This document shows positions 24,300-61,094 of a DNA stretch of 64,000 nucleotides, piece by piece (position 1 is the stretch's first letter; every line of letters begins with the position of its first letter). The stretch covers positions 64,001 through 128,000 of the forward strand of contig CAXXTF010000002.1 in NCBI GenBank assembly GCA_963665775.2, written 5' to 3'. The DNA comes from Dehalococcoidia bacterium (GTDB lineage: Bacteria; Chloroflexota; Dehalococcoidia; SM23-28-2; RBG-16-64-32). The notes beneath the pieces were generated by a model. That model saw only the letters and a program-made list of their open reading frames with translations. It made no database searches and had not been told where the DNA came from. A program made the position numbers and the translations under genes.

Positions 24300-25430
24300 A
24301 TGAAGATATCCTGTCTCAAGGAAAACCTCGCCAAGGGACTCTCCATCGTCGGGCGGGCGGTGGCCGTCCGGAGCACGCTCCCCCAGGCCTCGCACGTCCT
24401 CCTGGCCAGCGATCAGGGGCGCCTCAAGCTGGTCGCCACCAACCTGGAGATCGCTACTACCTGCTGGATCGGCGCTCAGGTGGAAGAGGAGGGAGCGATT
24501 ACCGTCCCGGCCCGGCTCCTGACCGACCTTGTAGCGTCCCTCCCCGACGATCGCATAGATATGGATGTGGCAGGGCGCCCTCGTCAGCTCCACATCACCT
24601 GCGCCCGCAATGAGGCCACCATCGCTGGCATGGACGCCGAGGACTTCCCCCCGGTGCCTTCCGTGGAAGACGGCCCTTCCCTGAAGCTCGACCCGAAGGC
24701 GTTACAGCGGGCTATCGCCCAGGTGGAGTTCGCCGCCGCCGCCGCTGACACCCGCCCCGTCCTCACCGGCATCCACATCCTGGCGGAGGACGGCCAGCTC
24801 ACCCTGGCCGCCGCCGACGGCTTCCGACTCGCCGTCCACAAGCTGCCCCTGGAGCAGGATGCGCCGGAGCGGGTTGAGGTGATTATCCCGGCCCGGGCCC
24901 TGAGGGAACTGGAGCGCCTCATCGCCGACGAGGAGTCCCTGGAGGCAGCGTTCAACGCCACTCGCTCCCAGGTCATCTTCCGGCTGAAGACGGTGGAGAT
25001 AGTGGCCACTCTAGTCCAGGGCACCTTTCCCAACTACAGTCAGCTCATACCCCAGTCCTGGGCCTCGCGGGCGGTCATCGACATGCGCCAGTTCCTGCAA
25101 GAAACCCGCATCGCCGCTATCTTCGCCCGAGACGGTGCCGGCATCGTCCGGCTGCAGGTGGAACCCGGGCAAGAGGCGGCACCCGGCAAGATGATCATCT
25201 CCGCTCGCGCCGAGGAGATCGGCGAACACCACGGCGAGATCGACGTGGCGGTGGAGGGTGAGCCGTCCAAGGTCGCCTTTAACAGCAAGTACCTACAGGA
25301 CGTGCTCCAGGTACTGGACTGCAGCCAGGTAGCGCTGGAGACCTCCAACCCGTCCAGCCCCGGCGTCATCCACCCGATCGGCTCCGATGACTACGTGCAC
25401 GTGGTCATGCCGATGTTTGTTCAATGGTGA
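24300..25430 (+). CDS. dnaN: DNA polymerase III beta sliding clamp
   Basis: ATNLEIA, RPVLTG, AADGFRLA, GTFPNY, FNSKYLQD, VVMPM; not adjacent to dnaA. Confidence 0.96.
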   Translation: MKISCLKENLAKGLSIVGRAVAVRSTLPQASHVLLASDQGRLKLVATNLEIATTCWIGAQVEEEGAITVPARLLTDLVASLPDDRIDMDVAGRPRQLHITCARNEATIAGMDAEDFPPVPSVEDGPSLKLDPKALQRAIAQVEFAAAAADTRPVLTGIHILAEDGQLTLAAADGFRLAVHKLPLEQDAPERVEVIIPARALRELERLIADEESLEAAFNATRSQVIFRLKTVEIVATLVQGTFPNYSQLIPQSWASRAVIDMRQFLQETRIAAIFARDGAGIVRLQVEPGQEAAPGKMIISARAEEIGEHHGEIDVAVEGEPSKVAFNSKYLQDVLQVLDCSQVALETSNPSSPGVIHPIGSDDYVHVVMPMFVQW

Positions 25431-26958
25431 CTAAATCCTGAGGCTGAGTAGTCATCATCAGCGGAACAACACCCCGAATCCGTGCTTCGGTGTTCGACGC
25501 CGCAATCTGGGCGTCCGTAGCCCGCAGCAGTAGGTCGAGCTTGTCGACATCGGCTGATTCGAGCCAGGAACGTAGCCGCCTGCTGTACTCGGGAGCGCAG
25601 ACTCGCAGACCATCGAGGTCGATTCTTGACCTGGCTTGGGGCTCCAACCTTTGACGCTCTGCTTCAAGGGTTGTTCTCTGGACGCTTAGCTCGCGCCGCT
25701 GCTCCTCCAGAAGGTCGCCCGGCAAGCCGCCATCGGTGAAGAGCCGAACTAGTCGCCGCTGACGCGCTTCGACTTCCCGAAGTGCGTCGTTGACTCGCTC
25801 TAGTTGGCTTGTTTCAACATCATCGCCCGTTAGCCGGATGACTTCCGAGATGATGCGGTCCGGATCAGCAAGTAGGTCCGCAATGGCACGCATGACGGCG
25901 CCTTCGAGGGTTGCAGTCGCCACGTACTTCGAGTCGCATCGCTTGTCCCACTGACTCCCGTAGCTATGCCGGCATCGGTAGTAGGAGTAACGGCCCTTCA
26001 TCAGGACTTGCCCGACCATAGGCGCTCCGCAAGCGAGACAGCGAAGGCGGCCACGGAGCGGATAGGCTCGCGAAGGCTTCGACCGGCTATGGCGGTATGG
26101 GTCTTCCAGAATGGTCTTCGCCCGTAGGTAGAGCTCAGGACTGACGATTGCAGGTGTAGCGCCCGCAATCTCAATCCATTCGTTCTGCTCGCGCTCTGAA
26201 ACACGCACCTTCCACCGGCCAGAGCGGCCATCGCGATACTTCTCTGACTTCGTCCGACGGTAGATAGACCGGCCAGTGTAGGTCTCGTTGAGAAGCATGC
26301 GGCGAATGGTCAGCGGATACCACGGGCCGCCGGCAAACGCAGGAACACCTCTTGCGTTGAGGCTAGCGGCTATACCGTGGCAGCTTCCGCCTTCTGCGAA
26401 CTTCTCGAAGGCTTCTCGTACAATGTCGGCCTCTCTCGGCTCGACGCGCCGAGTGCCACTCGCCTGGTCATACCTGTAGCCATAGATGCCTCGACCTGTC
26501 GCCTGGGGGAGCTTCCCGCTGCGGGCTCGCTGCGCCTTACCGCGCTGAGTTCGCTCGACGATTTTCTCGCGCTCGACTTCGGCTACGAAGGCTCGTGCGG
26601 CGAGTATGAACCGGCCAACAGCAGTGTCCTCGAACTTCTCTGTCACGAAGTCGAGCTTCACGCCGGTCTGATTTGCCTCATCGAACAGAACGCCGATTTG
26701 GTTCTGGTTGCGGGAGAGCCGATCAATCGCGAACGCAAGGATAACGTCTGCATCGGCGTCTCGAAGGAGCTTCCGAACCTGCTCCATACCCGGACGATCG
26801 AGCGTGAAGCCGCTCGCTGCATCGCGTACGGTGCCAACAATTGCCCAGCCCTGAGCCTCTGCGTACTCAGCGCAGGCCCTCTCCTGGGTCTCTAAGGAAG
26901 TGCCATCACGCTCCTGAGCATCGGTCGAAACCCGACAGTAGATCACGCATCTAGTCAT
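25405..26958 (-). CDS. large serine recombinase (integrase)
   Basis: YCRVST catalytic motif, DRLSR, GIYGYRY, Zn-ribbon CLACG...YYRC, coiled coil. The last 8 codons and stop lie inside dnaN. Confidence 0.95.
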   Translation of the reverse strand: MTRCVIYCRVSTDAQERDGTSLETQERACAEYAEAQGWAIVGTVRDAASGFTLDRPGMEQVRKLLRDADADVILAFAIDRLSRNQNQIGVLFDEANQTGVKLDFVTEKFEDTAVGRFILAARAFVAEVEREKIVERTQRGKAQRARSGKLPQATGRGIYGYRYDQASGTRRVEPREADIVREAFEKFAEGGSCHGIAASLNARGVPAFAGGPWYPLTIRRMLLNETYTGRSIYRRTKSEKYRDGRSGRWKVRVSEREQNEWIEIAGATPAIVSPELYLRAKTILEDPYRHSRSKPSRAYPLRGRLRCLACGAPMVGQVLMKGRYSYYRCRHSYGSQWDKRCDSKYVATATLEGAVMRAIADLLADPDRIISEVIRLTGDDVETSQLERVNDALREVEARQRRLVRLFTDGGLPGDLLEEQRRELSVQRTTLEAERQRLEPQARSRIDLDGLRVCAPEYSRRLRSWLESADVDKLDLLLRATDAQIAASNTEARIRGVVPLMMTTQPQDLVTIEQTSA

Positions 26959-27149
26959 TTGCTCTTCTCCGGCTTCCGCCCTGGGGGCTGAATCTCGTCA
27001 TCGTTCGTGCCGTACGCCTTATCGATGGCCGCTCGGATGAGCTTGGCGATGGGCACGCGCTGCTCGAACGACAGGCGTCTAAGGGTCTCGTACTCGTCCT
27101 CGCTGATTATGAGCATCATTCTCTGCATAACACTATTATTATATGGCAA
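26955..27149 (-). CDS. ribbon-helix-helix (CopG-like) protein
   Basis: RMMLIISEDEYETLRRLSFEQRVPIAKLIRAAID; ATGA overlap with the integrase. Confidence 0.8.
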   Translation of the reverse strand: MPYNNSVMQRMMLIISEDEYETLRRLSFEQRVPIAKLIRAAIDKAYGTNDDEIQPPGRKPEKSK

Positions 27150-29744: not shown

Positions 29745-31457
29745 TCAGGGCAGGTCCAGGGTGTAGACGCCTCGGGCTCCGGCTTCGACGATTAGCCTTT
29801 TCCAGAGGGGCGACTTGCCGAACATGTCACTCATACTGCGCGAAAGGCTCTCTGTCCGGTCTCTGATCACGCCCCAACTCATGGGTGGGTCGCGTCTCTC
29901 CCATGCCTCATTCAGCAATCGCATGACCGGCCGTTGCACTGGGGTCAATGCATAAGACTTGCCTCGGAAGACGATCGACTCGTAATTTTCTCCGTGAACG
30001 AGCCCCTTTCGTCTGCCGCGATCGATCTCGAGTTCCTTCTCCGCACCGGCGCAGAGGCTAACCAAGCAAGTGGCAGGCAACAGCCCCCTGGCCAGCTCAT
30101 CGGCGTGGCCTGCAATTTGGGAAGCCATCACGCTGATTACCCCTTTTGCGTGACGCTGATGCATGCGGACAAGCTCCAACCCGTCTTCTGCCACCGTCTT
30201 ACTGGATGGATCGAGACATTCGTCGAGCTGTGGATACTCATTGATCATCTGGTCTTCGGTCAGGTCGTACATTCGCAGCGCATGGCGAAAGTACGAGGTC
30301 GCCATAGTCCGTGGTTCGCCATCCAGCAATGGTTGGGTGAAGATGTCGACTTCGTAAGCTTCCGCCGGGTCGTATTCTTCGATGCCAGCCTCCATCGTCC
30401 CAAACCTGCGGTCTATGCACTGCGAGCATGTCCCGCAGTGGGGCTGCATCCTTGCCCGGCCTCTTGGGTGAGCGCATGAATGCGTAAGCGAGACGAGGTC
30501 AAGCGCAGCGAGGGGCTTCAGCAAGTCGAATGTCTCGGGTCTCGTCTGGTTCCACAGCGGATTCCAGACGCTAACGTCCGCTTCTGCCACCAGACCGGCG
30601 AGTCGCCGAAAGAGGAGGAGAAACTTGGGATGCGTTGACCGGCTCGCGCGCGCCCCGATGGCCTGGTCTGTGAAAGGCAGGTTCACGCTGACGATCCCAT
30701 TGTCGGCCAGGCGAATATCATCAATGCCCAACGCAATCCCGACCGCTGTTCCCAGGCTCGCATAGAGCATTGACCGGGTCCGTTGAGTATTCTCCTTTGC
30801 ATCGGCGCCCTTGAGGCTGACGACAGCGTCAGCAGTGCGAAAACCCTGCCGGGCGAAGCGCCGTCTGACTTCCGTCAGCAAATCGCGGCGGTGGCCAATA
30901 GCAGCTTTGGATGCGCGATGACTTACTAGGAACGGATTTCTGTCCTGCTGGTGAGCTGACAGCGCAGCGCACAAACTGTCAGCGCCGCCAGAGAACAGTA
31001 CGACGCATCCAGGCTGTCCGTGAAGCCCCGCGTCTGTCTCCACGAGTCTCATCTGAACAGTGCCGGATTCCACTAGCTTCTCGAAGCGGAAGTCCCAGCC
31101 GTCTTCCGTCAAGAAGTTGAGCGTCTCCCGCAGAGCTAGGCTAACGTCGCTGGCATTCCAGAAGTCTGGGTCGCTGACCGGGATAGCCATCAGCATCTGT
31201 CGGCGCCAGTCTTTTAGGTACACGTCGGCTTCGCCGCCCCTTGACGCCGACTCGTCAGCGAGGAAGCAGTAACTGGCGATGCGAACGAGATCGCGCATCC
31301 TCGGTGAGAGGTTGCCGAGGACGGGGCCGGGTAGCTCAAGCCGGAAGTCCGTTACTGTTTTCCCTTCGTTGTGGGCATCAAGGGAATGGCGATGTGGGAC
31401 CCTCGACCACTCCGACGGAATGCTCAGACCCTCACAGGCAAAGACGTGCCCCTTCAC
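29745..31457 (-). CDS. QueC-like (QatC/Cap9-like) PP-loop ATPase with Zn site and C-terminal winged-helix-like domain
   Basis: VLFSGGADS, ENTQRTRS, DNGIVSVNLP, SRSTHPKF, SC...HCGTCSQCIDRR, plus an extra C-terminal domain of about 90 aa. Confidence 0.85.
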   Translation of the reverse strand: MKGHVFACEGLSIPSEWSRVPHRHSLDAHNEGKTVTDFRLELPGPVLGNLSPRMRDLVRIASYCFLADESASRGGEADVYLKDWRRQMLMAIPVSDPDFWNASDVSLALRETLNFLTEDGWDFRFEKLVESGTVQMRLVETDAGLHGQPGCVVLFSGGADSLCAALSAHQQDRNPFLVSHRASKAAIGHRRDLLTEVRRRFARQGFRTADAVVSLKGADAKENTQRTRSMLYASLGTAVGIALGIDDIRLADNGIVSVNLPFTDQAIGARASRSTHPKFLLLFRRLAGLVAEADVSVWNPLWNQTRPETFDLLKPLAALDLVSLTHSCAHPRGRARMQPHCGTCSQCIDRRFGTMEAGIEEYDPAEAYEVDIFTQPLLDGEPRTMATSYFRHALRMYDLTEDQMINEYPQLDECLDPSSKTVAEDGLELVRMHQRHAKGVISVMASQIAGHADELARGLLPATCLVSLCAGAEKELEIDRGRRKGLVHGENYESIVFRGKSYALTPVQRPVMRLLNEAWERRDPPMSWGVIRDRTESLSRSMSDMFGKSPLWKRLIVEAGARGVYTLDLP

Positions 31458-31460
31458 GCC

Positions 31461-32234
31461 TCAGCCTCTTTTCAACTCGCTGCGCATCTTGCGAAGGGCG
31501 TACGCTACGAACGCCCGCGTGTCCCCCTCGGTAATTGCGCCTTGTGACTCCCACTGGTGCTTCGAGTACCAGCCCCCCGCGAAGTCGCGAAGAATGAAGG
31601 CTGTTTCTCGTGCGTGCCGGTCTATGGCTTCAATGGCTTCGCGGCTATCTCCGACGGTGCGAAGGCCGGGAGAAGCGCCGACGAGGTTCGGAATCTCCTT
31701 ATCGACGTAAGAGCAAAGCGTTCGTGCTAGAAAGTCGCCGAAGAACCGCTGCGCCAACTGGGCGAAGTGTTCACGTGTGCTGTATGTGCGAAAGGCCGCC
31801 CGGAGGTCGCTCAGGGCGGTTCCAAACAGGCTGGGTCCCTGCTGCCCCACCGTCTCCGTCAACGCTCGCCGAAGAGCCAGTGAGGCCATCTCGGCCGTTG
31901 CGCCGGACTTCGGGTCTTGCATCGCCTGCGTTCGCACACGGTCCGTTACAGCCGCGATGAAGCCCAGCGTGGGCGTGTCGGCTTCAAGAGTGAGGCCCAG
32001 CGCGTCCAATTCGGTGAGGAAGCCGTCGCTACGGGCAGCCCAGGTGACACGGGTAAGTAGCCAGAAGCAGTAGTTGAGGGCGGGGTCGTCTCGAAGCGAG
32101 ATCAGGTGTCGTTCGGCAGCCTCAGTGGTGGCCCTTGCAATAGCGGCGCCGTCTGCAGGCGTCTCACCAAGCAGTGCGACGACCGCGTTCCACTTCAACC
32201 GATGAGGGAGGCGTCCTAAGCGAATATGACCCAT
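31461..32234 (-). CDS. helical protein with N-terminal MGHxRLG, putative QatB-like partner of the QueC-like enzyme
   Basis: Starts MGHIRLGRLP, is all-helical, and ends 3 bp before the QueC-like gene. Confidence 0.65.
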   Translation of the reverse strand: MGHIRLGRLPHRLKWNAVVALLGETPADGAAIARATTEAAERHLISLRDDPALNYCFWLLTRVTWAARSDGFLTELDALGLTLEADTPTLGFIAAVTDRVRTQAMQDPKSGATAEMASLALRRALTETVGQQGPSLFGTALSDLRAAFRTYSTREHFAQLAQRFFGDFLARTLCSYVDKEIPNLVGASPGLRTVGDSREAIEAIDRHARETAFILRDFAGGWYSKHQWESQGAITEGDTRAFVAYALRKMRSELKRG

Positions 32235-32280
32235 GAGTCGTCCTTCCGGCGGGTAGGCCGGGGTTTTAGTCGATCGCCTC

Positions 32281-32495
32281 GACCTGCCCCATGAACGCTA
32301 CCACACGCTATGTTAGTGCAGCCATTGCCATAGTCTCGATGTATGGCGGGGTGGAGCCTGGCCATGGCAGGATCGCTTGCGGTGCTAGCGGCCGGCAACC
32401 AAGAACGCTATACGGGCGCACCGCACTGTAGTTTCATCGCCACGGCTCGCATAGCACCTGTGCTTCTGACCTGCACCCATAAACGCTACCAGACG
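32281..32495 (-). mobile_element. degenerate right-end fragments of the IS3 element (two stacked ends)
   Basis: 32281-32466 aligns with 56850-57036. A second end motif, tgacctgcacccataaacgctacca, starts at 32467. Confidence 0.8.
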
Positions 32496-32637
32496 CCACG
32501 CTTGCACCCAGTTTGGTGACGGCGCTCGATGGTTGACCGCCCACCACAACTGGTACTACAGTACTACAGCCAGCATGCCTAGAGGCACCTTCCCTTCATT
32601 ACGGCGCGGGATCCAACCGCAGAAAGGGACCACTCAA

Positions 32638-35600
32638 ATGGCGCGAGTGGCCGGAGCCGAGCCCATCTATCGAGTCGCTGATCTCTTTCGGCAACGTTGC
32701 CTCATCGAAAGGCGATCACTCTTATGGGGTGAATCAGCTGTGTGGACGCCGGACAATCTGTCCGCGCTGTGGGACGCTTTCGACAAGAGTCGTGACGAGA
32801 GCGACAGGTCCTTCTTCGACAAGCTTCGAGACCAAATCAGTGAGCAACCACCCGACGTCCATCGTGTGGCCGCGGATATCTTGGCACTATATCACCTGTT
32901 CCCGTCAAATATCGCCGCCGAAACGAAGCTCAACAACGTCAAGACAGTCATCAGCTGGAAACTCCAGGGAGATCTGCCAGATTTCCTGCTATTGGAGAAG
33001 GCCTATTCGAAGGGCATAGGAAGCGGAGGCACGGGGTACCTCACAGGAAGGCCATGGCACTTCGCCTTCCTAATCAAGTTCTCACAAGGAATCCTCTCGG
33101 GAGAAGCCGACCCACTCGACCCGACATCCTGCCAGAAACTCGCCGACTCCGTTGAGAGCCAGATTCGGAGTAGTCGGGCTGCGCGACACGTGATCCTGCA
33201 CCTGCTACACCCGGACAGGTTCGAGCGAATCGCTAGCGAGAGGCACAAGCGCCAATTGATTGAAGCCTTCCAGGACCGAGCGGCCGCGGCAGAAGATCTT
33301 GACGATGCGCTGCTCAGCATAAGGCGTGCTTTCGAGGATGAGTATGATCGAGCGGACTTCGATTTCTACGACAAGGACGTTATCGCCCACTGGAACGCCG
33401 ATTTCTATGGAACCGACGGGGAGTCAGATCCTACCAAGATTGCAGAGCTGCTGGAGAACAAATCGTTAGCGGACAGGGACGTAATTAGCGAAAAGGGCTG
33501 GCAGAAAGCAGTACGGCCCATTACCCGACCCTTCCTACAACGAATAGCAGACAAACTCGGAACCGGGGTGAAATTCTTCTCTGGGAGAGATGCAAAGCTA
33601 AAACGGGAATCCTATGACACGCTCGCCGTCGAATTGGATGGCGTCTCCGCGGTCGTCTATGTTGGATGCGCAGATAACGCTGACGGGAACCTTGAGCAAC
33701 AACTCAGTTGGGGACTGCACTCCTGGGGGGCAGCCGACTCCGCCGAGCAGCGCATACGCGCAGCGGAGAGCCTGAGCATACCAGGATTTACCCTGCGAGC
33801 TATTGACGGGATCAAGGCCAGTGGATTCGGCGGAACAACCGTTGTCCTATTCAGGTCGAGGTCGGCCGAAGAACTTCGAGGTTTGCCGGAAGATGAGCTT
33901 GTAGGCGAAATCGCTGACGACCTCAAAACCATCATTGCCAAAGCTTCTGCTCCGGTCGAGGAGCCCCGCGTCTGGATAGAGAAAACAATCGTACATGGGC
34001 GGCCGCATCGTCAATCCGGAGAGCACGCTCTCGGCAAGGTGCTCTGGTCCCCGCAGCACAGCAGAGGGGGCGGCGACATATATCACTTCATGCGCGACGT
34101 GAAGGAGGGCGACATCGTCCTGCACCTGACGGACAACGAGGCGTTTGCCGGCATGTCAATTGTCGGCAGCCCGGCTGAAGATTTCGCGGGCGTGGCAAAC
34201 TCGGAATGGGGCGAGGGCGATTCATACTTGGTGCGACTCCGGGACTTCGAGAGACTAGATCCACCACTGTCGCGAGAGGTCGTCTTTGAATCCCCTTATC
34301 GAGAGCAGCTCGTCGCGTTACTAGAAGAGGGAGAGAAGAATCTCTTCTATAATCGAGGGCCGAGCCTCAATCAGGGTGCACACCTGACACCCGCGCCCAC
34401 GGCACTGGTCGCTATTCTGAACGATGCGTACCGCCAGGTCGCCGGGCGGCCCCTCGTCGAGTTGACGCCCCCGAAACTCAACGCTCTGCTTGTCGGTACA
34501 GCGGCCTATCAGGAGAAGCACGCTCTGCTCGTTGAGGAACAACTCCAGTCCCAAGATCGAGCGACTTCATGGTGGCACATCCCAATCACAGGTGATCGAG
34601 AGCGAGTGCTGATCGAATCGGGTTACGTGTACTTGTACAGGGGCCAGCCCGGCCAGGAGTTGACGCACCGCTATCATGTGGTCGATCACAGCACCACGAG
34701 CGGCAACACAGGAATCGCCTGCCCCTGGCCCGAATTCGCGCAACCAGAGTTGCTGGACAGGACAAGCGCCGGCCCCGACAGCGACGAAGTATTCAAGACG
34801 TGGCTCTTGATCGACCGCGTCGAAGAGCTCGATCCCCCTATTGATTTGAGCTAGGTCGAGAAGGCGGACGGTGAACCCGCAGATCCGAGCGCCCTTGTTG
34901 GAGGATTTGGACTGTGGCGCACTAAGAAAAGCAGTCGCGCCCACACGTGGATCTTTCAAGCGAATCCGGCGATTTACGACATTCGCGGCTCCATCCAAGT
35001 GCTTCAAGAGGATACTTGGCTCGTGCGGCAACATGGCAACGAGATTCGGCCAGGAGATAGAGTGTACTTGTGGGAGGCCGGACCGAACGGCGGCATTATT
35101 GCGACTGCCGACGTTCTCAGCCAGCCCAGCACGATGTTGTTGCCTGACGAGTCTACGCCTTTCGTTAGAGAGCCGTCCAAGCTGGAAGGTCCACAAAATC
35201 GCGTTACGGTTCGTATTAACAATCTTGTAGACCCGATCCTAACCCGGGAAGAAGTGCTTAGGCAGCCAGAGCTCGCGAACCTCAGCATATTGCGACAACC
35301 GCAAGGGACAAATTTCAGCGTAGATCGAAGACAGTCTGAGGTGCTCGAACGTCTCCTTGCCGAGCGGGATGAGGCGCTGATCAATCCTGAGTACAGTCTG
35401 AACCAGTTGGCTCTTGAGACCGGCTTCGACGAAGCGACGATGGAGCGCTGGGTGCGCGCAATCGAAAGAAAAGGCCAAGCGATAATCTACGGACCGCTAG
35501 GCACTGGCAAAACCTATCTGGCGCAGCAGCTCAGCAGACACATTGTTGGTGGTGCTGACGGACTACAAGATATCGTGCAGTTCCACCCAGCGTATGTCTA

Positions 35601-36213
35601 TGAAGATTTCATACAGGGCATCCGACCTCAGGCCAGCGAAGGTGGCGGACTTGACTATCCGGTGATTTCCGGTCGCTTCGTCGAATTCTGTGCAAAGGCT
35701 CGGATGCGACAGGGACACTGCGTTCTAATCATCGACGAGATCAATAGGGCGAATCTGGCAAGGGTATTTGGCGAGCTGATGTACCTGCTTGAGTACCGCG
35801 GCCGCGAGATCCCGATGGCTGGTGGCGGCACCTTGAAAATCCCCGAGAACGTCCGAGTCATAGGCACCATGAACACCGCCGACCGCTCGATCGCTCTGGT
35901 GGATCATGCGCTTCGCCGAAGATTCGCGTTTTTGGCCCTCTATCCTGATTATGAGGTCCTGCGGAAGTACCACGCATCCACCGGCTACCCCACAGATCCG
36001 TTGGTGGGTGTCCTGCAGGCACTGAACCGACAGATAGGCGACCGGCATTACGAAGTCGGAGTCACCTTCTTCCTGTTGAAGAATCTGGCAGACCATATTG
36101 AGGACATTTGGCGAATGGAGATCGAGCCCTACCTGGAGGAGTATTTCTTTGACCAGCCCGAGAAGGTAGCTGAGTTTCGCTGGGATAGGGTTGGGGAGAG
36201 ACTTTCTCCGTGA
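32638..36213 (+). pseudogene. mcrB: large multi-domain McrB (several EVE/PUA-like reader domains + AAA+ GTPase) with in-frame TAG at 34852-34854
   Basis: The two ORFs share frame 1 and read through cleanly (...PPIDLS*VEKADG...TWIFQANP). Motifs IIDEINRAN, MNTADRS, LRRRF. Walker A reads GPLGTGKT. Confidence 0.88.
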
Positions 36214-37424
36214 ATGCCCCTCCCACCCAAATTGTGGAGCTCACAGAGTACGCCACCAAGAGCTTCCCACGCGAGGACATCCCTGACAGCGTAGCCGAGG
36301 CGTTATGGCGGAACCATAGCGCTAAGGTCGCGGTAGAGTTCCCATCACCGAAGACCGCCTATAAGTGGGAACTCACCGCCCAGGGCTGGGTAGGCTACAT
36401 TCCCTTGTCTCCAGAACTGCGTTTGTGGCTTCGCCCAAAGGTGGAGCTGTCCAACCTGTTTCACATGCTTGAATATGCGTACCACCTCAAGAGCTTCATC
36501 TTCCTTGAGGGCCTTTTCGAGTGCCAATCACTCCAGGAATTCTACGAGCGCCTGGCGAATGTCCTGGCCAAACGAATCCTGAACCGCGGCCGCCAGGGAT
36601 TCTATCGAACCTACGTACCCAGAACAGAGCGCCTGCCCTACCTGCGCGGCCGACTCGAGATTCCATCACTGGTACGAGCACCTTGGGACGCAAACATGCA
36701 GTGCCACTATCATGAGCACACCGCTGATGTCGAGGAGAACCAGATCCTCGCCTGGACGCTCTTCACGATAGCCCGGAGCGGCATGTGCTCGGAGCGCGCC
36801 ATGCCGGCAATAAGCCGGGCGCACCGCGCCCTGCAGGGATTCGTAACGCTCGTCCCGCAGGGCCCAGAGGCATGTACAGGGCGGCTCTATCATCGGCTAA
36901 ACGATGACTACAGGCCGTTGCACGCCTTATGTCGGTTCTTCCTAGAGCATAGCGGGCCACATCACGAGACGGGCGATCGAACTATGGTGCCATTCTTAGT
37001 TGATATGGCACGCCTTTTCGAATTGTTTGTCGCAGAATGGCTGGCAGCACACTTGCCGGAGGGGCTGGAGTTGAAGCCTCAAGAAAGTGTAGCCATCGGT
37101 GATGGAGACACTCCTGGCTTTGTAATCGACCTAGTGCTATACGACACGGCCAGTGGCACCGCACGCTGCGTGATGGACACGAAGTATAAGACCCCGACGG
37201 CACCTTCGACTGAAGACATCGCTCAGATAGTTGCCTACGCTGAGGCTAGGGGCTGCCAAGATGTGATCCTGATCTACCCAACTGAACTGCCGAGGCCGCT
37301 TGATGCCACTGTCGGGAGTATTCGAATCCGAAGTCTGGCCTATTCTGTGGACACGGACATCGAGCAGTCAGGGCTCGACCTGATGCATAACCTACTCAAT
37401 GCCGGGCAGTCCGGCGGCTTCTAG
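36210..37424 (+). CDS. mcrC: McrC-family restriction nuclease
   Basis: DMARLFELFV, IDLVL...MDTKYK, DIAQIVAYA, LIYP; GTGA overlap with mcrB. Confidence 0.9.
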   Translation: MNAPPTQIVELTEYATKSFPREDIPDSVAEALWRNHSAKVAVEFPSPKTAYKWELTAQGWVGYIPLSPELRLWLRPKVELSNLFHMLEYAYHLKSFIFLEGLFECQSLQEFYERLANVLAKRILNRGRQGFYRTYVPRTERLPYLRGRLEIPSLVRAPWDANMQCHYHEHTADVEENQILAWTLFTIARSGMCSERAMPAISRAHRALQGFVTLVPQGPEACTGRLYHRLNDDYRPLHALCRFFLEHSGPHHETGDRTMVPFLVDMARLFELFVAEWLAAHLPEGLELKPQESVAIGDGDTPGFVIDLVLYDTASGTARCVMDTKYKTPTAPSTEDIAQIVAYAEARGCQDVILIYPTELPRPLDATVGSIRIRSLAYSVDTDIEQSGLDLMHNLLNAGQSGGF

Positions 37425-37563: not shown

Positions 37564-37638
37564 ACGGAGCTGACCCCACCTCAAATCTCTCGGGTTTTTC
37601 TACCCCCTCATCTGTCCCATTATCGCTGACGGTCTACA
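37564..37638 (-). mobile_element. isolated 75-bp copy of the left end of the IS at 42755-44280
   Basis: Identical to 44206-44280, in direct orientation. Confidence 0.9.
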
Positions 37639-42754: not shown

Positions 42755-44280
42755 TGTTGGCAACCAGCAAAATTGGGACACATTGAGACCCGAGAGATCA
42801 GGGGTCGGATAGAGGTCTCGTAAGCTCCCTGATGGCCCTATTGTGCTGTCTTCGCCGTTCGATTGTTTGGGCCTGCACCTCCTTTCTTCTTAGTAGGATC
42901 TCCTGCCGCCTTCCCTTGAGGACATCCGAGGGCGTCACGTTGCCGAGGGCCTTGTGATAGCGTCGGTAGTTGTAGTAGCTGACGAAGGCCACGATGGCCG
43001 CCTCCAAGTCTGAAGGCATCTCATACGGCAGTTGGTTCACATCACGCTTGAGGGTCTGGTGGTAGCGCTCCAGCTTGCCGTTGGTCTGAGGATGGAAGGG
43101 CGTTGCCAGGATGTGCTTGATGCCCACCATACCCAGGTAGTCTCTGAAGGCTCTGGATACATAGCCGGGGCCGTTGTCGCTCAGCAGCCTGGTCCGGTCT
43201 GTTATCGGGATCTGGTCCATGCCGGTCCTGTCCACGGCCTCTTGGACCACCTCTATGAAGGAGTCGGATGTCATATCCCTCTGAAGCCTGTGGCCCAGGC
43301 CTGTCCTGAGCTTGTCGAAGGGATGAATCGTGAGTAGTCGTCCATGACGGTGACCATGTAGTAGTAGCCCCAGCCCACCACCCTGAAGTAGGAGGCATCG
43401 GTGGCCCACATCTGGTGGAGACCGGTGGTCTTCCGATGGTACTCCTTACCCGCAGCCAGCTGCATCTCAGCCCTCTTCACCAGCCCCTCCCTGGGCAGGA
43501 TGCGGTAGACAGTAGACTCTGATACGGAGAAGCCCTGGTTGTCGGTGGTCCATGCGGCCAACTGCCGGCAACTCAACTCCGGCATCTCCCTGGCTGCCGA
43601 CAGAACGTAGTTGATCTCCTGGGAAGTCAGCTTGTTCCATGGGGGATTGCCACCTCCCACGTCGTCCTCAAGTCCTTGCTGCTCCTTCCGCCTCAGCCAC
43701 CGGTAGTAGGTGATCCTGGGGACTCCTAGCCCACCCAGGATCCTGCGTTTGGGGAGACCGGAGGAAGCCACCTTGTCCAGCACCTCCGCCTTCTCTGCGC
43801 CACTCATCCGTTGATACTGTCGGCGCCCTGAGGCATTGGTATGGACGTTTTTTTGAGACGATAGACCTCAAGGGACAGATCGGCGACCAACTGCTTTAGC
43901 TCTCCGTTCTCCCGCTTGAGCTGATGGACCTCCTCCCTGGTGGCATCTCGCACGCTGTCGGGGGTGAGCCTCTCCTTGCCCGCTTCCATGAACTCCTTGG
44001 TCCACGAGTAGTAAGAGTGACGCTTGATGCCCTCCCGCCTGCACGATACGAATCTTCTCTTCCGGGGTGTACTTGCGCCTAGTAGCAGCCTTAACCGTTC
44101 CGATGAATGACCTGGCCGCCTCTGTGCGTTCATCAGCGGCCGCTGTTTTACCTGTTTCTGTCTGGGACATCTTTGGCTCCTCTATCTGAAGTGCTCTACC
44201 TCATCACGGAGCTGACCCCACCTCAAATCTCTCGGGTTTTTCTACCCCCTCATCTGTCCCATTATCGCTGACGGTCTACA
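42755..44280 (-). mobile_element. degenerate IS3/IS481-like element with multiple frameshifts
   Basis: TGT...ACA ends with imperfect IRs (...TGGGACA). Fragments RRKYTPEEKIRIV, WATDASY, SDNG, HPQTNGKLER. Confidence 0.85.
43299..43321. repeat. 23-bp REP-like insertion (CCTTCGACAAGCTCAGGACAGGC on the minus strand) frameshifting the transposase
   Basis: Removal restores DDYSRFILGHRLQ. Confidence 0.75.
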
Positions 44281-45492: not shown

Positions 45493-46378
45493 TCACAGGG
45501 CAACCTCCCACCGAAAAGTTTGTAGTACAGTCCCCGTTGGCCCACCATCGTGCATACTAGATAGAACGGAACCATGTAGGGTCACCTTTACGGCCGCCCC
45601 TCCCGGTATCAAGGTGTCATCTGGCACAGGTGCAGTGTATCTGAGCAGGGCGTCACCGGGCACGACGACGATCTCCTTGATAAAGGACTGGATGAAGGCC
45701 CTGCGCTCGGTCAGTTCGCTCTCCTTCAGGAAGTCCTTCATGTCCTTGGCGTAGGCCGCGATGGTGTTCACGTCGTCGAGGACCTTCCGGCGCTGGGCCA
45801 GGACCGCCCTCGCCTGCTCAGCGAAATACTCCAGACGCTCCTGCCGCTCTCGGTGCTCCCTGATGCGGTCTGAGGCGTCGGTCATAACGGCGTCGGACGT
45901 CTCTATGAAGTGCCAGATGCGGCCCAGCTTCCGCTTCACTTCCTCAAGCTCATCCTCGATGGTCTCCAGCCTCTTGCGCTGCTCTCGGGTCACGCCGTCC
46001 ATCTCCTCGGCCACCACCTTGACCAGATCTCGGATGTTGCCCTCAGTGAGGATGTTGGAGCGAATCCTGGCGACCACCAGCTCCTCGAAGCGGCGGGCGT
46101 TGAGCGTGGGAGTCTTGCAGGCGTCCCTGCCGAGCTTGATGGTCGACTGGCAGACGTAGTAGGAGTACTTGCCGCTCTGGGCGAACCGGCCGATGAGCGG
46201 CGTGTTGCACGTCTTGCACTTGGCGAGGCCGCTGAGCAGGTAGGAGCTTCCGACTCTTCGGGGGTGGCTGAACTTGGGTGCGCGGGAGCTCAGATGCTTC
46301 CCGACACGCTGCAACTGCGCCCTGGTGATGATGGCGGGAAACGCCTTCTCCACCCGCACAGGGTCGGCGTTGTCCTTG
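45493..46378 (-). pseudogene. C-terminal half of a large serine recombinase truncated by IS3
   Basis: DPVRVEKAFPAII, YLLSGLAKCKTC, YYVC; paralogous to 52611-54190. Confidence 0.88.
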
Positions 46379-52061: not shown

Positions 52062-52610
52062 TCCTGGATAGACGCCAACGCACAGATCTTCGACATGGCT
52101 CTCCAGGCAGGCGCCGTTCGTTCATCAGATACGAAGTCTGCTGGCCGGATCGAGCTCGTGACTAATGGCCGTTTGGGGAGAACGAGCGCCCCGCCTGCAC
52201 GCTTTGAGTCCGAGCAATGTCGTGGACTGAGGTTGCTATGAGCTCAAGGTTAGCGTCAACTCAAATGGTACGCTAGCGATTTGGCTCTGGTTGAACAGTG
52301 ATCCCGATGTTCGTCCAGTGGTGAGTAAAGGTATACCGTTTAGGCTTCAAGTGCAGTGCACTGGCACGACCTAGTAGCACGCCTAAGAGCCTGAGACTGC
52401 CCAAGGCTAGCGCCTTCTGAGCTTTAAGGGGTGGCGTTTAGGCACCCCAGTCTCCCGCACTACGCGACCTGTAGCCGACGGCTGTATCCTGAGTCTTGTA
52501 CAAGACATATGTCGGAGTCAGCGAGGATTTCAAGCCTAGACATTTCCGTACATAGCAGGTGTATAAAGGACCCGAGGGCAGGGTAAAGCTTTCTGACCAA
52601 AAAGCTTGGT

Positions 52611-54190
52611 TCAAGTCCGCTTAGGTGGGCCGGACTTGACAAAATCAAGAACCGAGGCCGATTCCGATGTCGCCCCGTCGCTCGGCATGGGCACGGTGTA
52701 CGTCAGCGTCGCCTCGTCTCCGACCACCTCGATGCCCTCGACGAAGTTGCGGATGAGCGCCTTGCGCTCGGGGAACGTCCCGTCCTTCAGGAAGTCCCGG
52801 AAGTCCGCAACGTACTTCACTATCTCCTCGGTGTTGGGAAGGGCAACCCTGCGCTGCTCAAGCTGGCGCTCGGCGTCGTCTCGCGCAGCCTCCAGCTGCT
52901 CCTCGCGGTGCCTCAGAGAGAAGATGCGGGGCGATAGGACCTCAAGGGTCAGCTCGCTCGTCTCAACGGCCTCGTAGAGCCTCTTAAGCCGCTTCCTCAC
53001 GTCGGATAGCTCCGCCTCTATGACCTCCAGCCTGCCGGATATCTCTCCGGCAATGGCGTCGATCTCCTCGGCCACCAGCGTCACAAGCGCCACGATGGTC
53101 TCCTCGTTGAGGATGCGCTCCCTGATCTTCTCCACCACGAACGTCTCCAACCTGGGGGCGTTCAGGTAGCGGGCGCTGCACGTCCCCGCTCCCTCCCTGA
53201 ACAGGGTGCCGCAGATGTAGTAGGCGAACTGGCCGCTCTTGGCTCCCTGGCCGGAGTAGGACTTGCCGCACACTCCGCACTTGAGCAGCCCGCTCAGCAG
53301 GAACTTGCTGCCCACTCTCGCGGGCCTCTGCACCTTCGGCGCGCGGTCCCGCATCGCCTGCTGCACGTCGTCGAACAGCTCCCTCGACACAAGCGCGGGC
53401 CACGCTCCCTCCACACGCACCGGGTCCTGGGCCTTCTCTCCCTTGCTGGTGCGGCCCCAGACGGCGGTGCCGGTGTAGGCTTCGTTGGTCAGCAGGTAGT
53501 GGAGTCCGCCCTTGTTCCAGCGCTTGCCCCTGTTGGTGATGCCCCTGCCGTTCAGGGCCTTGCATATCTCCTTCAGGCCGTTGCCCCGCAGGGAGCTCTC
53601 GAATATCTCCCTCACTACCGGTGCGGCGGCAGGATCGACCTCCAACGTGGGGCGCTCCTTCACCCCGTCGCTGATCTTCACCCGCTTGTAGCCGAAGGGG
53701 CGTTCGAGGCGAGGAAGAAGCCCCGTGAGGCGGCCTCCCGCATCCCACGCACGACGTCCTGGGCAAGATTTTCGCTGTAGAACTCGTCCACGCTCTCGAT
53801 GATGGCCTCCATGAGCTTGCCCGTGGGGGAGTCGTCAGCGTGCTCGGTGATGGACACCACCCTGATGCCCTTGCGCCGTAGCATGGACTTGAAGGCGACG
53901 GCGTGCTCGCGCTTCCTGGTGAAGCGGCTGAACTTCCAGACGAGAATTACGTCGAAGGGGGCCTTCGGCTGGCTGCCCTCCTCGATCATCTCCCTGAACT
54001 GGGGCCGGTCAGCCACGCGTCCGCTTTCGGCCTCGTCCACGTACTCGCGGGCTACGGAGTAGCCGTTGGACTTTGCGTAGTCCTTGAGTGCCCTGAGCTG
54101 GGCGGACACGGACAGGTCCACGTCCTGCCGGTCGCTGGATACCCTGGCGTAGAGCGCCGCCGGTGTGAGCGGCTGTAGGTGCTTCTTCAT
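52611..54190 (-). pseudogene. large serine recombinase with a 1-bp frameshift near 53697
   Basis: YARVSS...KFSRFTR in 53678-54190. The frame switches at a C/G run (APFGYKRV expected) into the recombinase/Zn-ribbon part. Confidence 0.88.
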
Positions 54191-54214: not shown

Positions 54215-56017
54215 CTATTTAGTCTCGGTCCACTCATCTGAAGCTGGACCGGGCCATCTTTCTGACACGAGCTGGGCCATTCGTCGGCTTCTGCATCGAA
54301 TGGTTTTCTCGTCCCAAGAGGGCTGAGACAACAGCTCGTTGTTGAGTAACAGAACGGCGTACTTTTGGAGTTCGTCGCATTTGCTCGTCCACGGGTCGTT
54401 GGACATGGATGAGTTGAGTTTTTGGGTCGCGAGCGTGAGATTGCCAATTGAGTGGATGAGTGTGCTGCGTTGGTATGTCGCTGCATCCTCATCAAGGCCC
54501 TCTGGGAGTGGCCACTTCTCTTTGTCCCAACCTACCGGCATCAAGTGCTCTATTGTCAGATTTGGCGGTACGTTAGTCTGTTCAGACTTTCCCGAGGAAC
54601 GCAACCGGCGCTCAACGCCTTCGAGCACCAATCGTAGCCTGCCCCTGGTCAGCAGGCGATAGAGCGGAGAAGACTCCAGGGCATCGGCCACGGCTTCGTC
54701 GCTGGGTCATTCCCTGGCGTATGCAGTCTGCTCTTTCAGGAATCCGGCGGTAACTGTGTCGGCCTCGCCCAGTCCACTCTCCCGCAAGCGGCTGGCCAGT
54801 TCCAGGACTAGCCTGTTGTAGTCCTTCGTGGTCTGACGGCAAATCATCCTACGGACCAGGAAGCTCTCCAAGGCATTGAAGGCCCTGATGCGCGTTCCTT
54901 CTTCAGCTGACAGGAGCAGCAGAAGTACGGGGGTGATCACGCGGGCCTGCATGACATCCACATGGTAGCAGAACGACTTCTCCTCGGGACTGCGGCCTCT
55001 GGTCGATTCGAAATCACGGTAGTGCACCAGATCTTGCTTGACCTCCGCCATCACTACGTGAACCTCCTGGCCATCAACGTAGCTGCGGAACACGTCAAAC
55101 ACCCTTGTTGGCGAGACCTCCGAACCGGTGCGCATCGCCAGCCAGTAGTTGAGGAGCATGTCCAAGCGCGGCCTGAACAGGCGGCCTTGTCTGACCTCCC
55201 TCCACCACCACCCATCGTCCAAGTTGCCCCAGATGTCACCCTGCCGGTCTCGCTCCCGGGAGAGAACATAGTTCTTGATGAGGTCGGACTGTTCAAGCGG
55301 AGTGCCACGAGCATTTAAGGTCTCGAATATGAGATTCGGATCGTCCTGAGAGCCGAGGTCAATCACAACCATCTGGAGCATCGACGTTGCCGCAGCCTCA
55401 AGTGCATCGATCCTGTGTTCAATTGGTCCTGCCGCGTCTTGAAGCCATTTGCGAACTTGTAGTTGGAAGAACTCGTGCGCTTGGACAATCAGCGACTCTT
55501 CGAAGTCGTTTACGGCGAGTCCATTGTCCATGGCGTGCCTGAACGCTTCCCTGTCGCCCCTGGTGGGCCACAGCTTGAAGATGTGAAGCCTATCGTCCCC
55601 AATGAGTTCTTCGTCGTTGGTAACAAGCTTGGCCAGACGCCTTGCGACTCTCTTGAGGTATGGTTGGTCTGACTCTTCGCAAATCTGTTGAATGGCATCC
55701 AGAAGAAGTTGCAGTGTTGTCACACTCTGTTGGCCGTCAATCACTTCACGCTGGTCGATATCCTTTGCCGCCGTGGGGACCTGCTTGAGAACGACGGCGT
55801 CCAGGAAGTGCGGACTTGTTTTCTGCTCCGCTTCGACTCCGTCGTCACCCGAGCGCTCCAGTTCCTCAAGATAGTTTTCGGCCACGTTGCGGACATCTTC
55901 CCAGAGCGGTTCCCATTGGTCGTCCTGGGACCAAACGTAGGGACGCTGGAAAGGCGGGATGGTGTAGCGGACCTCTTTCTGGAAGAGGTCTTTAGGAGTG
56001 AGAATGTCCGTGTGCAT
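54215..56017 (-). pseudogene. GmrSD-family (DUF262 + DUF1524/HNH) type IV restriction enzyme with in-frame TGA at 54707-54709
   Basis: FQRPYVW, IDGQQS (canonical DGQQR), IFETLNARG, then ARE*PSDE and IEHLMP...IGNLTL...N. Confidence 0.9.
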
Positions 56018-59651: not shown

Positions 59652-60935
59652 TTGAGTATGCCCAGACTATCAATGCTACAGATGATGCTCCTTGAAGAGC
59701 TTCAGTCAGCACCAGCCAAGTCCGTGACAGAGCTCGCCTCGCGAGTGGGCAAGCTCCGCCCGTCCGTCAGTCGCTCCCTAAAGCTGCTACAGCAACATGC
59801 GCTGGTGACTTACGAAGATAGCGAGTGGCGTGCCACTCGTCCTGGTCAAGCTGAATCAGACCGCGCCAAGCAGAAACTAAAGGATATGGAAGCGCAACTT
59901 CAGCGCACCTTCCGAGCCCTAACTCCGCGCGTTTCCATGCCCGTGATAGCACCGGAGACATTCCGCACTATCAAGACACTATCCTCGAGAATGGAGTCCA
60001 TTCTATCGAATCTGTTGACTACCAGTGAGGTCACACGCGCAGGTGCACTTGCACTTAGTCAACTCCATGTGTCCCACACCGAGGCGATCCGACGCGCAAT
60101 TGAACCTCTAGCCCAGTCGCAGATCCAAAGCGCCGCTCTTATCAAGGCTGCGATGGGCACTCAGCTCTTGCCGGACTTCGCGTCTCTTATGCAGACCTAC
60201 AACCGACACTTGGCGAACGCAATCGACGACAGCCTTGCACTCCGAAATCTCTCACTGTCCCGTATCCCGGAACTCCCTGTGGCACGGCTTGGCAGCTTTA
60301 CTCCCCTATCAGTCCATTTTCCAGCAATCACGGAAGCAGTGGAGGCCTTGAGCCGAGAGTTACCATCCCATATTGCAACTCTAAACAGGATGTCGCTGCC
60401 CGAGCATACGCTGGTCTCCGTGTTAGTGCCACCCACGGCAACGGCGGCCTACAGCAGGTCAATGCGTCTCTGGATAGAGGAAGACTCAGGAACTAGCCCT
60501 CCTGAGTCATATCTGCTTGAAAATCCGCACGCCCTAATACATCTGGGCCTCTCAGCGCTCGGTCCGGGATTCGTCGAAAAGCACCAAGGCGCCTGGAATG
60601 CCTTCCGGCAGGGCGGCCCCGACTCTCTTCGGCACGCTGCGGTATCAATGCGTGAACTGATTCGAATGTTCTTCAAACAATTGGCACCGGACCAGGACTT
60701 GGAAGAGAAAGATTCAACTCGCCTCAAGGCCAGGGTTCGTCACATTCTCCAAGGCAGCGGCAGTGGCGCTCAGTTCGTAACGCACATGGCCTTGGGTCTT
60801 GATGGGTTATTCGACCGGCTGAATGCTTACACCCATGGGGATGAGACGGACAAATCCGCTCTGCAAGGGATAATGATTGCTGCGGACGGGGTGTTGCTCT
60901 TCGTTCTCCACAATGTCCATCGTTCCTCCGAGTAG
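59652..60935 (+). CDS. MarR-like wHTH + helical region + C-terminal predicted pPIWI-associating nuclease-like (HEPN-type) domain
   Basis: SVTELASRVGKLRPSVSRSLKLL; GAW.A.....PD..RH...S.REL.......LAPD; final xTH motif. Confidence 0.7.
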   Translation: MSMPRLSMLQMMLLEELQSAPAKSVTELASRVGKLRPSVSRSLKLLQQHALVTYEDSEWRATRPGQAESDRAKQKLKDMEAQLQRTFRALTPRVSMPVIAPETFRTIKTLSSRMESILSNLLTTSEVTRAGALALSQLHVSHTEAIRRAIEPLAQSQIQSAALIKAAMGTQLLPDFASLMQTYNRHLANAIDDSLALRNLSLSRIPELPVARLGSFTPLSVHFPAITEAVEALSRELPSHIATLNRMSLPEHTLVSVLVPPTATAAYSRSMRLWIEEDSGTSPPESYLLENPHALIHLGLSALGPGFVEKHQGAWNAFRQGGPDSLRHAAVSMRELIRMFFKQLAPDQDLEEKDSTRLKARVRHILQGSGSGAQFVTHMALGLDGLFDRLNAYTHGDETDKSALQGIMIAADGVLLFVLHNVHRSSE

Positions 60936-61094
60936 CGTCACTATTGCCCCCGCTGCCTACTGCGGAGGCAGGGCTGGTAAGATATAACCCTATGTGTTCA
61001 AGCAGATCAGAGGTGATATGGCCCAAAGGTATAGCTCCTGCTCAAGATGCTGGGAATCCTAGTCGAGCAGAGGCGCAAGCCAGCTTCGGCGCTC

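Follow-up and report, generated by a model that had tools for sequence, protein, structure and literature searches.

The 64,000-nucleotide window analysed here (positions 64001-128000 of contig C2 in the two-contig, 2.35-Mb genome of a Dehalococcoidia bacterium) contains dnaN, the gene of the sliding clamp, and a convergent gene for a large serine integrase that shares the last codons of dnaN. We consider it probable, at roughly 0.8, that an element was inserted at the dnaN end by its own serine integrase, the open reading frame (ORF) of which spans the core of attP, the attachment (att) site carried by the element. It is established that the two genes overlap, that there are two att sites with symmetrical arms, that the end of dnaN is restored, and that integrases across the family are linked to dnaN. 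Based on these observations, a 26.9-kb integrative element would have been placed in the last codons of dnaN by the integrase that it encodes.

Overlap with dnaN and the two att sites

All three beta-clamp domains were matched by dnaN in Pfam. The ORF at 25405-26958 was assigned to the large serine recombinases because the Resolvase (PF00239, E 4.9e-33, residues 5-149), Recombinase (PF07508, E 2.7e-22) and Zn_ribbon_recom (PF13408, E 3.8e-10) domains were all matched. In a comparison of 49 family members, R9, S11 and R80 of the resolvase catalytic domain are invariant, as are the zinc cysteines C307, C310, C329 and C341. The two convergent genes have a stretch of 26 bp in common (25405-25430). 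The last seven residues of the integrase are encoded by the antisense of the dnaN codons M-P-M-F-V-Q-W, and its stop codon is read from the antisense of GTC-ATG in dnaN. An earlier interpretation made from the letters of the window (the sequence-only reading) had described this overlap and the two protein ends, on which the ORF list and the sequence agree. It had also stated that island content starts at the dnaN end; the G+C content indeed falls from 0.66-0.68 ahead of 25 kb to 0.59-0.61 beyond it, marking the island boundary.

The sequence-only reading had further placed the crossover at the last codons of dnaN, inside the integrase ORF, and had found no matching att site in the window. One is nevertheless present: the second att site is located at 52304, with the same core, CCGATGTT, as at 25410 and a dnaN-like right half. 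It surfaced only in a tblastn search with the dnaN tail (VIPMFVQW at 52298-52321); it was missed by general repeat finding and by searches for the 27-nt junction, both exact and with 3 mismatches. The pattern CCGATGTTYGTNCARTGGTRA occurs in the window at 25410 and 52304 (0 expected from 100 shuffles) and three times in the 2.35-Mb genome, where the reversed control pattern gave 0 occurrences. The 8-bp identity between attL and attR, CCGATGTT, is a direct observation. Both att arms, the left one at 52304 and the right one at 25410 in reverse complement, have the form GATTT-N8-TTGAACA-N6 up to a central CC, and the attP rebuilt from them is GATTT-N8-TTGAACA-N6-CC-N6-TGTTCAA-N8-AAATC, with imperfect inverted half-sites, a layout typical of attP sites used by serine integrases. 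The two att sites are in direct orientation. Because of the arm symmetry and the 8-bp identity, the probable crossover dinucleotide is the CC in the proline codon of dnaN, at 25410-25411 in attL and at 52304-52305 in attR. The core (25410-25417) lies inside the integrase ORF, and the earlier placement of the crossover is thus upheld by arms that centre on 25410-25411. Since the arms match at 25410 and 52304, the element would extend from approximately 25411 to 52304 (26.9 kb). The features are collected in Table 1.

Table 1. Features at and between the att sites, in coordinates of the window
Feature	Position	Strand	Description
dnaN, sliding clamp, 379 aa	24291-25430	+	ORF list and Pfam; C-terminus VVMPMFVQW-stop
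attL	25386-25437		Left half dnaN (B arm); putative centre CC 25410-25411; P' arm TGTTCAA 25418-25424, AAATC 25433-25437
Large serine integrase, integrated (truncated) form, 517 aa	25405-26958	-	ORF list and Pfam; C-terminus LVTIEQTSA-stop
Small ribbon-helix-helix gene	26955-27149	-	Overlaps integrase start by 4 bp; RHH_3 E 4e-4, under the Pfam cut-off
Cargo	27163-52235		Two tyrosine recombinases, QatC-like gene (E 3.7e-51), McrBC pair, DNA methylase; IS1595 and IS3 insertion sequence (IS) copies, truncated unrelated serine recombinase, HigB/HTH pair
Tail continuation in the predicted excised form	52236-52304	-	22 residues, GSLFNQSQIASVPFELTLTLSS, from 52239-52304, then TAG stop
attR	52278-52324		P arm GATTT 52278-52282, N8, TTGAACA 52291-52297, N6; putative centre CC 52304-52305; then dnaN-like GATGTTCGTCCAGTGGTGA
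Scar of older element (B)	52306-52434		P' arm and last codons of a third-frame integrase (..THHWTNIGIT.., ORF 52273-52404, -)

For the end of dnaN, we compared 29 loci from relatives of the same order. The C-terminus MPMFVQW-stop is present in 27 of them; one of the remaining two runs off its contig end, and the other diverges after YVH. The last codons in the window are TTT GTT CAA TGG TGA, and those of most relatives are TTC GTC CAG TGG. Only one of the relatives (L011) shares the Phe codon TTT with the window. In another relative (G003, locus L013), the same ..CTAAATCCTGAGG follows past the dnaN stop, and then the contig ends. The last five codons and the stop of dnaN (from about 25411) are supplied by the element and are synonymous, in agreement with the earlier claim that the dnaN end is preserved. 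In the proposed mechanism, the right arm of the element would bring these codons and the stop, such that dnaN stays intact after integration.

Other arrangements occur at the dnaN ends of the relatives. In L003 (G017) and L004 (G002), a second copy of the last 12-20 dnaN codons lies 557-578 nt after the stop. This duplication is far longer than a serine-integrase core, and an insertion of another kind therefore also uses the dnaN end in these two loci. In L031 (G004), dnaN leaves the family sequence after ..YVH and remains open without a stop, and the contig of L014 (G012) ends at the codon where dnaN of L031 diverges; these are either assembly breaks or a different junction.

No empty site was found by synteny: the genes after dnaN in the relatives map elsewhere in the source genome (e.g., C2 at ~1.03 Mb). 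The comparison with empty relatives suggested by the sequence-only reading therefore gave no true empty site but did give a stand-in. To the right of 52298, 137 bp match the DNA directly after dnaN in genome G019 at 98.5% identity; the dnaN protein of G019 is only 72% identical to that of the window. Judged from this match, the right flank of 52304 taken together with G019 may serve as the substitute for an empty site, and the present element would have inserted between dnaN and the scar of an older element. Stretches of the same G019 locus (L028) and a multi-copy IS end are 98-99% identical at the nucleotide level to contigs C1 and C2 of the source genome, despite the 72% identity of DnaN, suggesting a recent exchange of mobile DNA between the two genomes.

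The third occurrence of the pattern is an att-like site outside the window (locus L123, C2:1026472-1026495, minus strand), where tblastn detects MPMFVQW at C2:1026475-1026495. It is located 0.94 Mb from dnaN and is inverted; its left arm is of the element type, and its right flank and the DNA that lies downstream of dnaN in G027 are homologous. The sites at 52304 and L123 share a non-dnaN left arm, and both have right codons of the relatives' type, TTC GTC CAG TGG TGA. The third site appears to be an older attR moved off by inversion. Its distance from dnaN and its orientation suggest that a large inversion started within the old island.

The integrase family and the dnaN end in Chloroflexota

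The protein search returned 594 matches at E <= 1e-30, the source names of which, where given, are Dehalococcoidia or Chloroflexi. Among the best 120 homologues, the motif T[IT][EGAV][QR]T[SWL][AG] forms the C-terminus in 82, is internal in 23 and is absent in 15. This tail motif is the antisense of the dnaN codons, and it varies only at positions that correspond to the third base of a dnaN codon and are synonymous in dnaN. We then considered 79 genomic loci from species-representative genomes. A convergent dnaN overlaps the integrase frame in 46 of the 79, by 26 nt in 16 of these and by 20 to 1053 nt in the others. A PMFVQW-stop pseudo-tail without a dnaN body is present in 19 loci, and the other 14 have neither feature or are cut by a contig end. 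With 46 of 79 loci from other genomes showing this arrangement, the overlap between dnaN and the integrase is not due to chance, and the search for TIEQTS-like tails adjacent to dnaN, which had been proposed as a check, gave the expected association.

The sequence-only reading had also held that close homologues with the same tail away from dnaN would speak against it. Such integrases do exist, at eight loci, but all eight end on a dnaN-like pseudo-tail. A search for dnaN in five of the eight genomes located two of these integrases on the contig that holds dnaN, ~50 kb downstream of it and with the same geometry; dnaN lay on another contig in two genomes and was not found in one. From their position and geometry, the two located integrases are inner members of tandem arrays. 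On a further contig, L091, which adjoins dnaN, and L103, which has the long form, are 87 kb apart. The antisense frame that crosses the site differs between subfamilies, and all three frames occur, ending in ..TIEQTSA-stop, passing through ..SPLNKHRHDDV.. or ending in ..HHCTNMGMTTWT-stop. Some frames at the remaining pseudo-tail loci run on past the core.

Integrase matches at E <= 1e-60 are present in 2 of 64 other genomes of the same order, one of which (in G053) adjoins dnaN, and a 96%-identical integrase is encoded on a second large contig of 2.8 Mb. The seven loci on viral contigs include one long form, which repeats a genome locus, and no demonstrable free circle. In Chloroflexota, the end of dnaN is apparently a hotspot at which defence-gene islands accumulate in tandem.

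Predicted forms of the integrase tail

In the attP rebuilt by script, the integrase frame is 538 aa long, compared with 517 aa in the integrated form, which agrees with the earlier proposal that the integrated and excised forms differ in their C-terminal tails. In the free circle, the frame would run 22 codons on into the left arm and give the 538-aa protein. After integration, the left arm would end up 26.9 kb away, and the frame meets an alanine codon and TGA, the antisense of dnaN GTC-ATG, in place of the tail. Integration is therefore predicted to cost the integrase its last 21 residues. The left arm of the third site (1.026 Mb) also gives a 538-aa frame, with a similar tail. Both the excised form itself and whatever the loss of the tail might do to activity are inferred.

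Selection on the tail was assessed with a Nei-Gojobori count on the two left arms of the source genome. The integrase frame is the sole one of six that is open in both arms. The ratio of the proportions of non-synonymous and synonymous differences (pN/pS) in the tail is 0.29 in this frame versus 0.45-3.2 in the other frames for this one pair; of the differences in the distal 12 codons, 7 are synonymous and 2 non-synonymous (pN/pS 0.10). These values are no more than suggestive of a tail selected as protein. The tails of the long-form homologues have S/W-x-F-N/R/K .. V/A/F-P-F-R/E/G in common. Modelled with AlphaFold2, two long-form homologues, which share 56% and 51% identity with the window protein, exhibit the usual serine-integrase build, with long paired helices at ~386-469, and the best Foldseek matches of the models are cryo-electron microscopy structures of serine integrase-att site complexes. 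The tail is a beta-strand in both models, and the linker ahead of it has a predicted local distance difference test score (pLDDT) of <50.

The geometry is well supported; a regulatory role of the tail change is unproven. The account of the overlap that survives best, with a probability that falls a little short of even, is mere compaction: attP would sit at the integrase 3' end, the residues past the core would be dispensable, and the conservation of the tail would reflect a constraint on the DNA binding site. The use of all three antisense frames within the family fits this account, as does the low-confidence linker, and the first 9 tail codons lie within the attP half-site (TTGAACA, AAATC). 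A serine-integrase half-site is ~25 bp. However, the best-conserved part of the tail, VPFELTL, is located 30-50 bp from the centre, beyond the half-site, and neither the mostly synonymous change in the distal tail nor the identical position of the stop codon in both left arms is expected from compaction.

The sequence-only reading had suggested that the tail change might be a directionality or stability switch. Under such a switch, the full 538-aa enzyme would be made only from the circle, with the extra strand serving full or differently directed activity, and the clipped 517-aa enzyme together with convergent transcription from dnaN would stabilise the integrated state. We regard this as doubtful. 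It would account for a tail that is conserved as protein and recurs in homologues of only 45-64% identity, and for its predicted strand in the two models. A consensus scan, which is weak evidence, detected no terminator-like site on the plus strand between the dnaN stop and the integrase body. Two known enzymes provide analogies. According to a preprint (bioRxiv 10.1101/2025.05.02.651858), the acidic patches through which phiC31 integrase contacts its directionality factor include the extreme C-terminus. In Mx8, according to a review (PMC6070905), attP lies within the int coding sequence, and integration makes a new int 3' end and changes the behaviour of the enzyme. Against a switch, the eight loci away from dnaN retain the same TGA stop, subfamilies use other frames, and the integrated tails vary with the codon choice of the host; the consequence of the tail for activity is itself a prediction. 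A wider proposal, which we advance only as an improbable one, is that the Chloroflexota dnaN-end integrases form a family with directionality control built into gene geometry. The circle would encode the full-length enzyme, and integration would clip a strand and set the gene tail-to-tail with an essential, constantly transcribed gene. The integrated enzyme would thus remain in an altered and silent state until its tail was restored by excision or by a newer element.

Mobility, cargo and relation to known systems

Several observations temper the case for an element that moves and exchanges its tail as we propose. Four sequencing runs were examined, all as assembled contigs, and neither an excision joint nor a usable loose end was found in them, an outcome that argues neither for excision nor against it; the contigs break at 25406-25417. 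The breaks fall within a conserved 33 bp, a sequence that many organisms share. The depths of the dnaN and integrase contigs in run X24 are equal (71.8 and 72.7). No candidate directionality factor was identified. The interior of the element is a mosaic with IS copies and a fragment of another recombinase; therefore, the element may no longer move. The selection test is a single pair of 22-codon sequences, and the pLDDT of the tail strand reaches a modest 70-81 in one model but a low ~57 in the other. The tail change is not universal either: 8 of the 19 pseudo-tail loci keep TGA right after ..TSA, and in hosts with GTG-ATG the integrated frame continues through antisense dnaN.

Some of these observations would be expected if the integrase were a fossil in a decayed island, with 52304 a leftover scar and excision lost. 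The IS copies and the truncated and split recombinases in or beside the island suit this explanation, as do the third site, which retains the original host flank 0.94 Mb off and inverted, and the equal contig depths. We nevertheless consider it unlikely, since the 517-aa frame is intact and keeps all invariant family residues, including R9, S11 and the four zinc cysteines, the att sites are in direct orientation, and the 96%-identical protein is present on the second contig. Insertion by the element's own integrase at the dnaN end is the reading that we retain.

The region that follows dnaN is a defence island throughout. A defence cluster at 29745-37424 comprises the QatC-like gene (570 aa), two proteins that match no family (257 and 773 aa), and EVE-AAA McrB with McrC. 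Between identical 75-nt direct repeats at 37564-37638 and 44206-44280, 6.6 kb apart, lie an IS1595 transposase, a gene with a P63C domain, a methylase and fragments of IS3; this segment could have arisen by duplication or be a composite unit. Two further serine recombinases, encoded at 52611-54190 (-) and 45493-46359 (-), belong to other families and share 22-28% identity with the dnaN type; one is split in two ORFs, and the other lacks its N-terminus and lies beside an IS3 copy. The genes beyond the element, covered by 54215-56017 (-) and 59652-63689, are a split GmrSD-type restriction gene, a pPIWI-associated nuclease-domain gene and an Eco57I/MmeI-like methylase fusion. The ribbon-helix-helix gene next to the integrase is possibly a regulator. 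It can be ruled out as a conserved partner of the integrase, being upstream of it in 3 of the 79 loci when the window gene was the query.

Large serine integrases are genome-engineering tools, and the control of their direction is an active structural question. With the present system, an essential replication gene joins the known landing sites of mobile elements. An integrase C-terminus rewritten by its own reaction would offer a natural pair of enzymes to compare (517 aa and the predicted 538 aa), and the definition of the att sites and their core is sufficient for a trial in a recombination assay. In the literature, with subscription journals and supplements outside the search, neither an account of the present family nor any dnaN-targeting integrase or serine integrase ORF that spans attP was found.

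Like phiC31, Bxb1 and A118/LI integrases, the enzyme has a three-domain build, with a putative coiled coil suggested by the paired helices of the homologue models, and its att sites are short and imperfectly palindromic with a non-palindromic central dinucleotide. It differs from these integrases in that it is only 15-20% identical to the solved members and targets the 3' end of dnaN, with an ORF that spans the attP core and a C-terminus that would depend on the integration state. Mx8 Int is a tyrosine recombinase and targets a tRNA gene region. Nonetheless, IntP/IntX of Mx8 is the nearest precedent for a state-dependent C-terminus: attP lies inside the integrase ORF, and integration gives a new 3' end (PMC6070905). 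The recombinase in the window is, by contrast, a serine enzyme and takes its new end from the antisense of a protein-coding gene that is essential. The element also resembles tRNA and tmRNA islands and the dusA-specific integrases (PMC4482086), in which the end of a conserved gene is targeted, a replacement end is carried, and tandem arrays and scars occur. Those systems use tyrosine integrases and longer repeats, whereas the element described here has an 8-bp core and targets dnaN.

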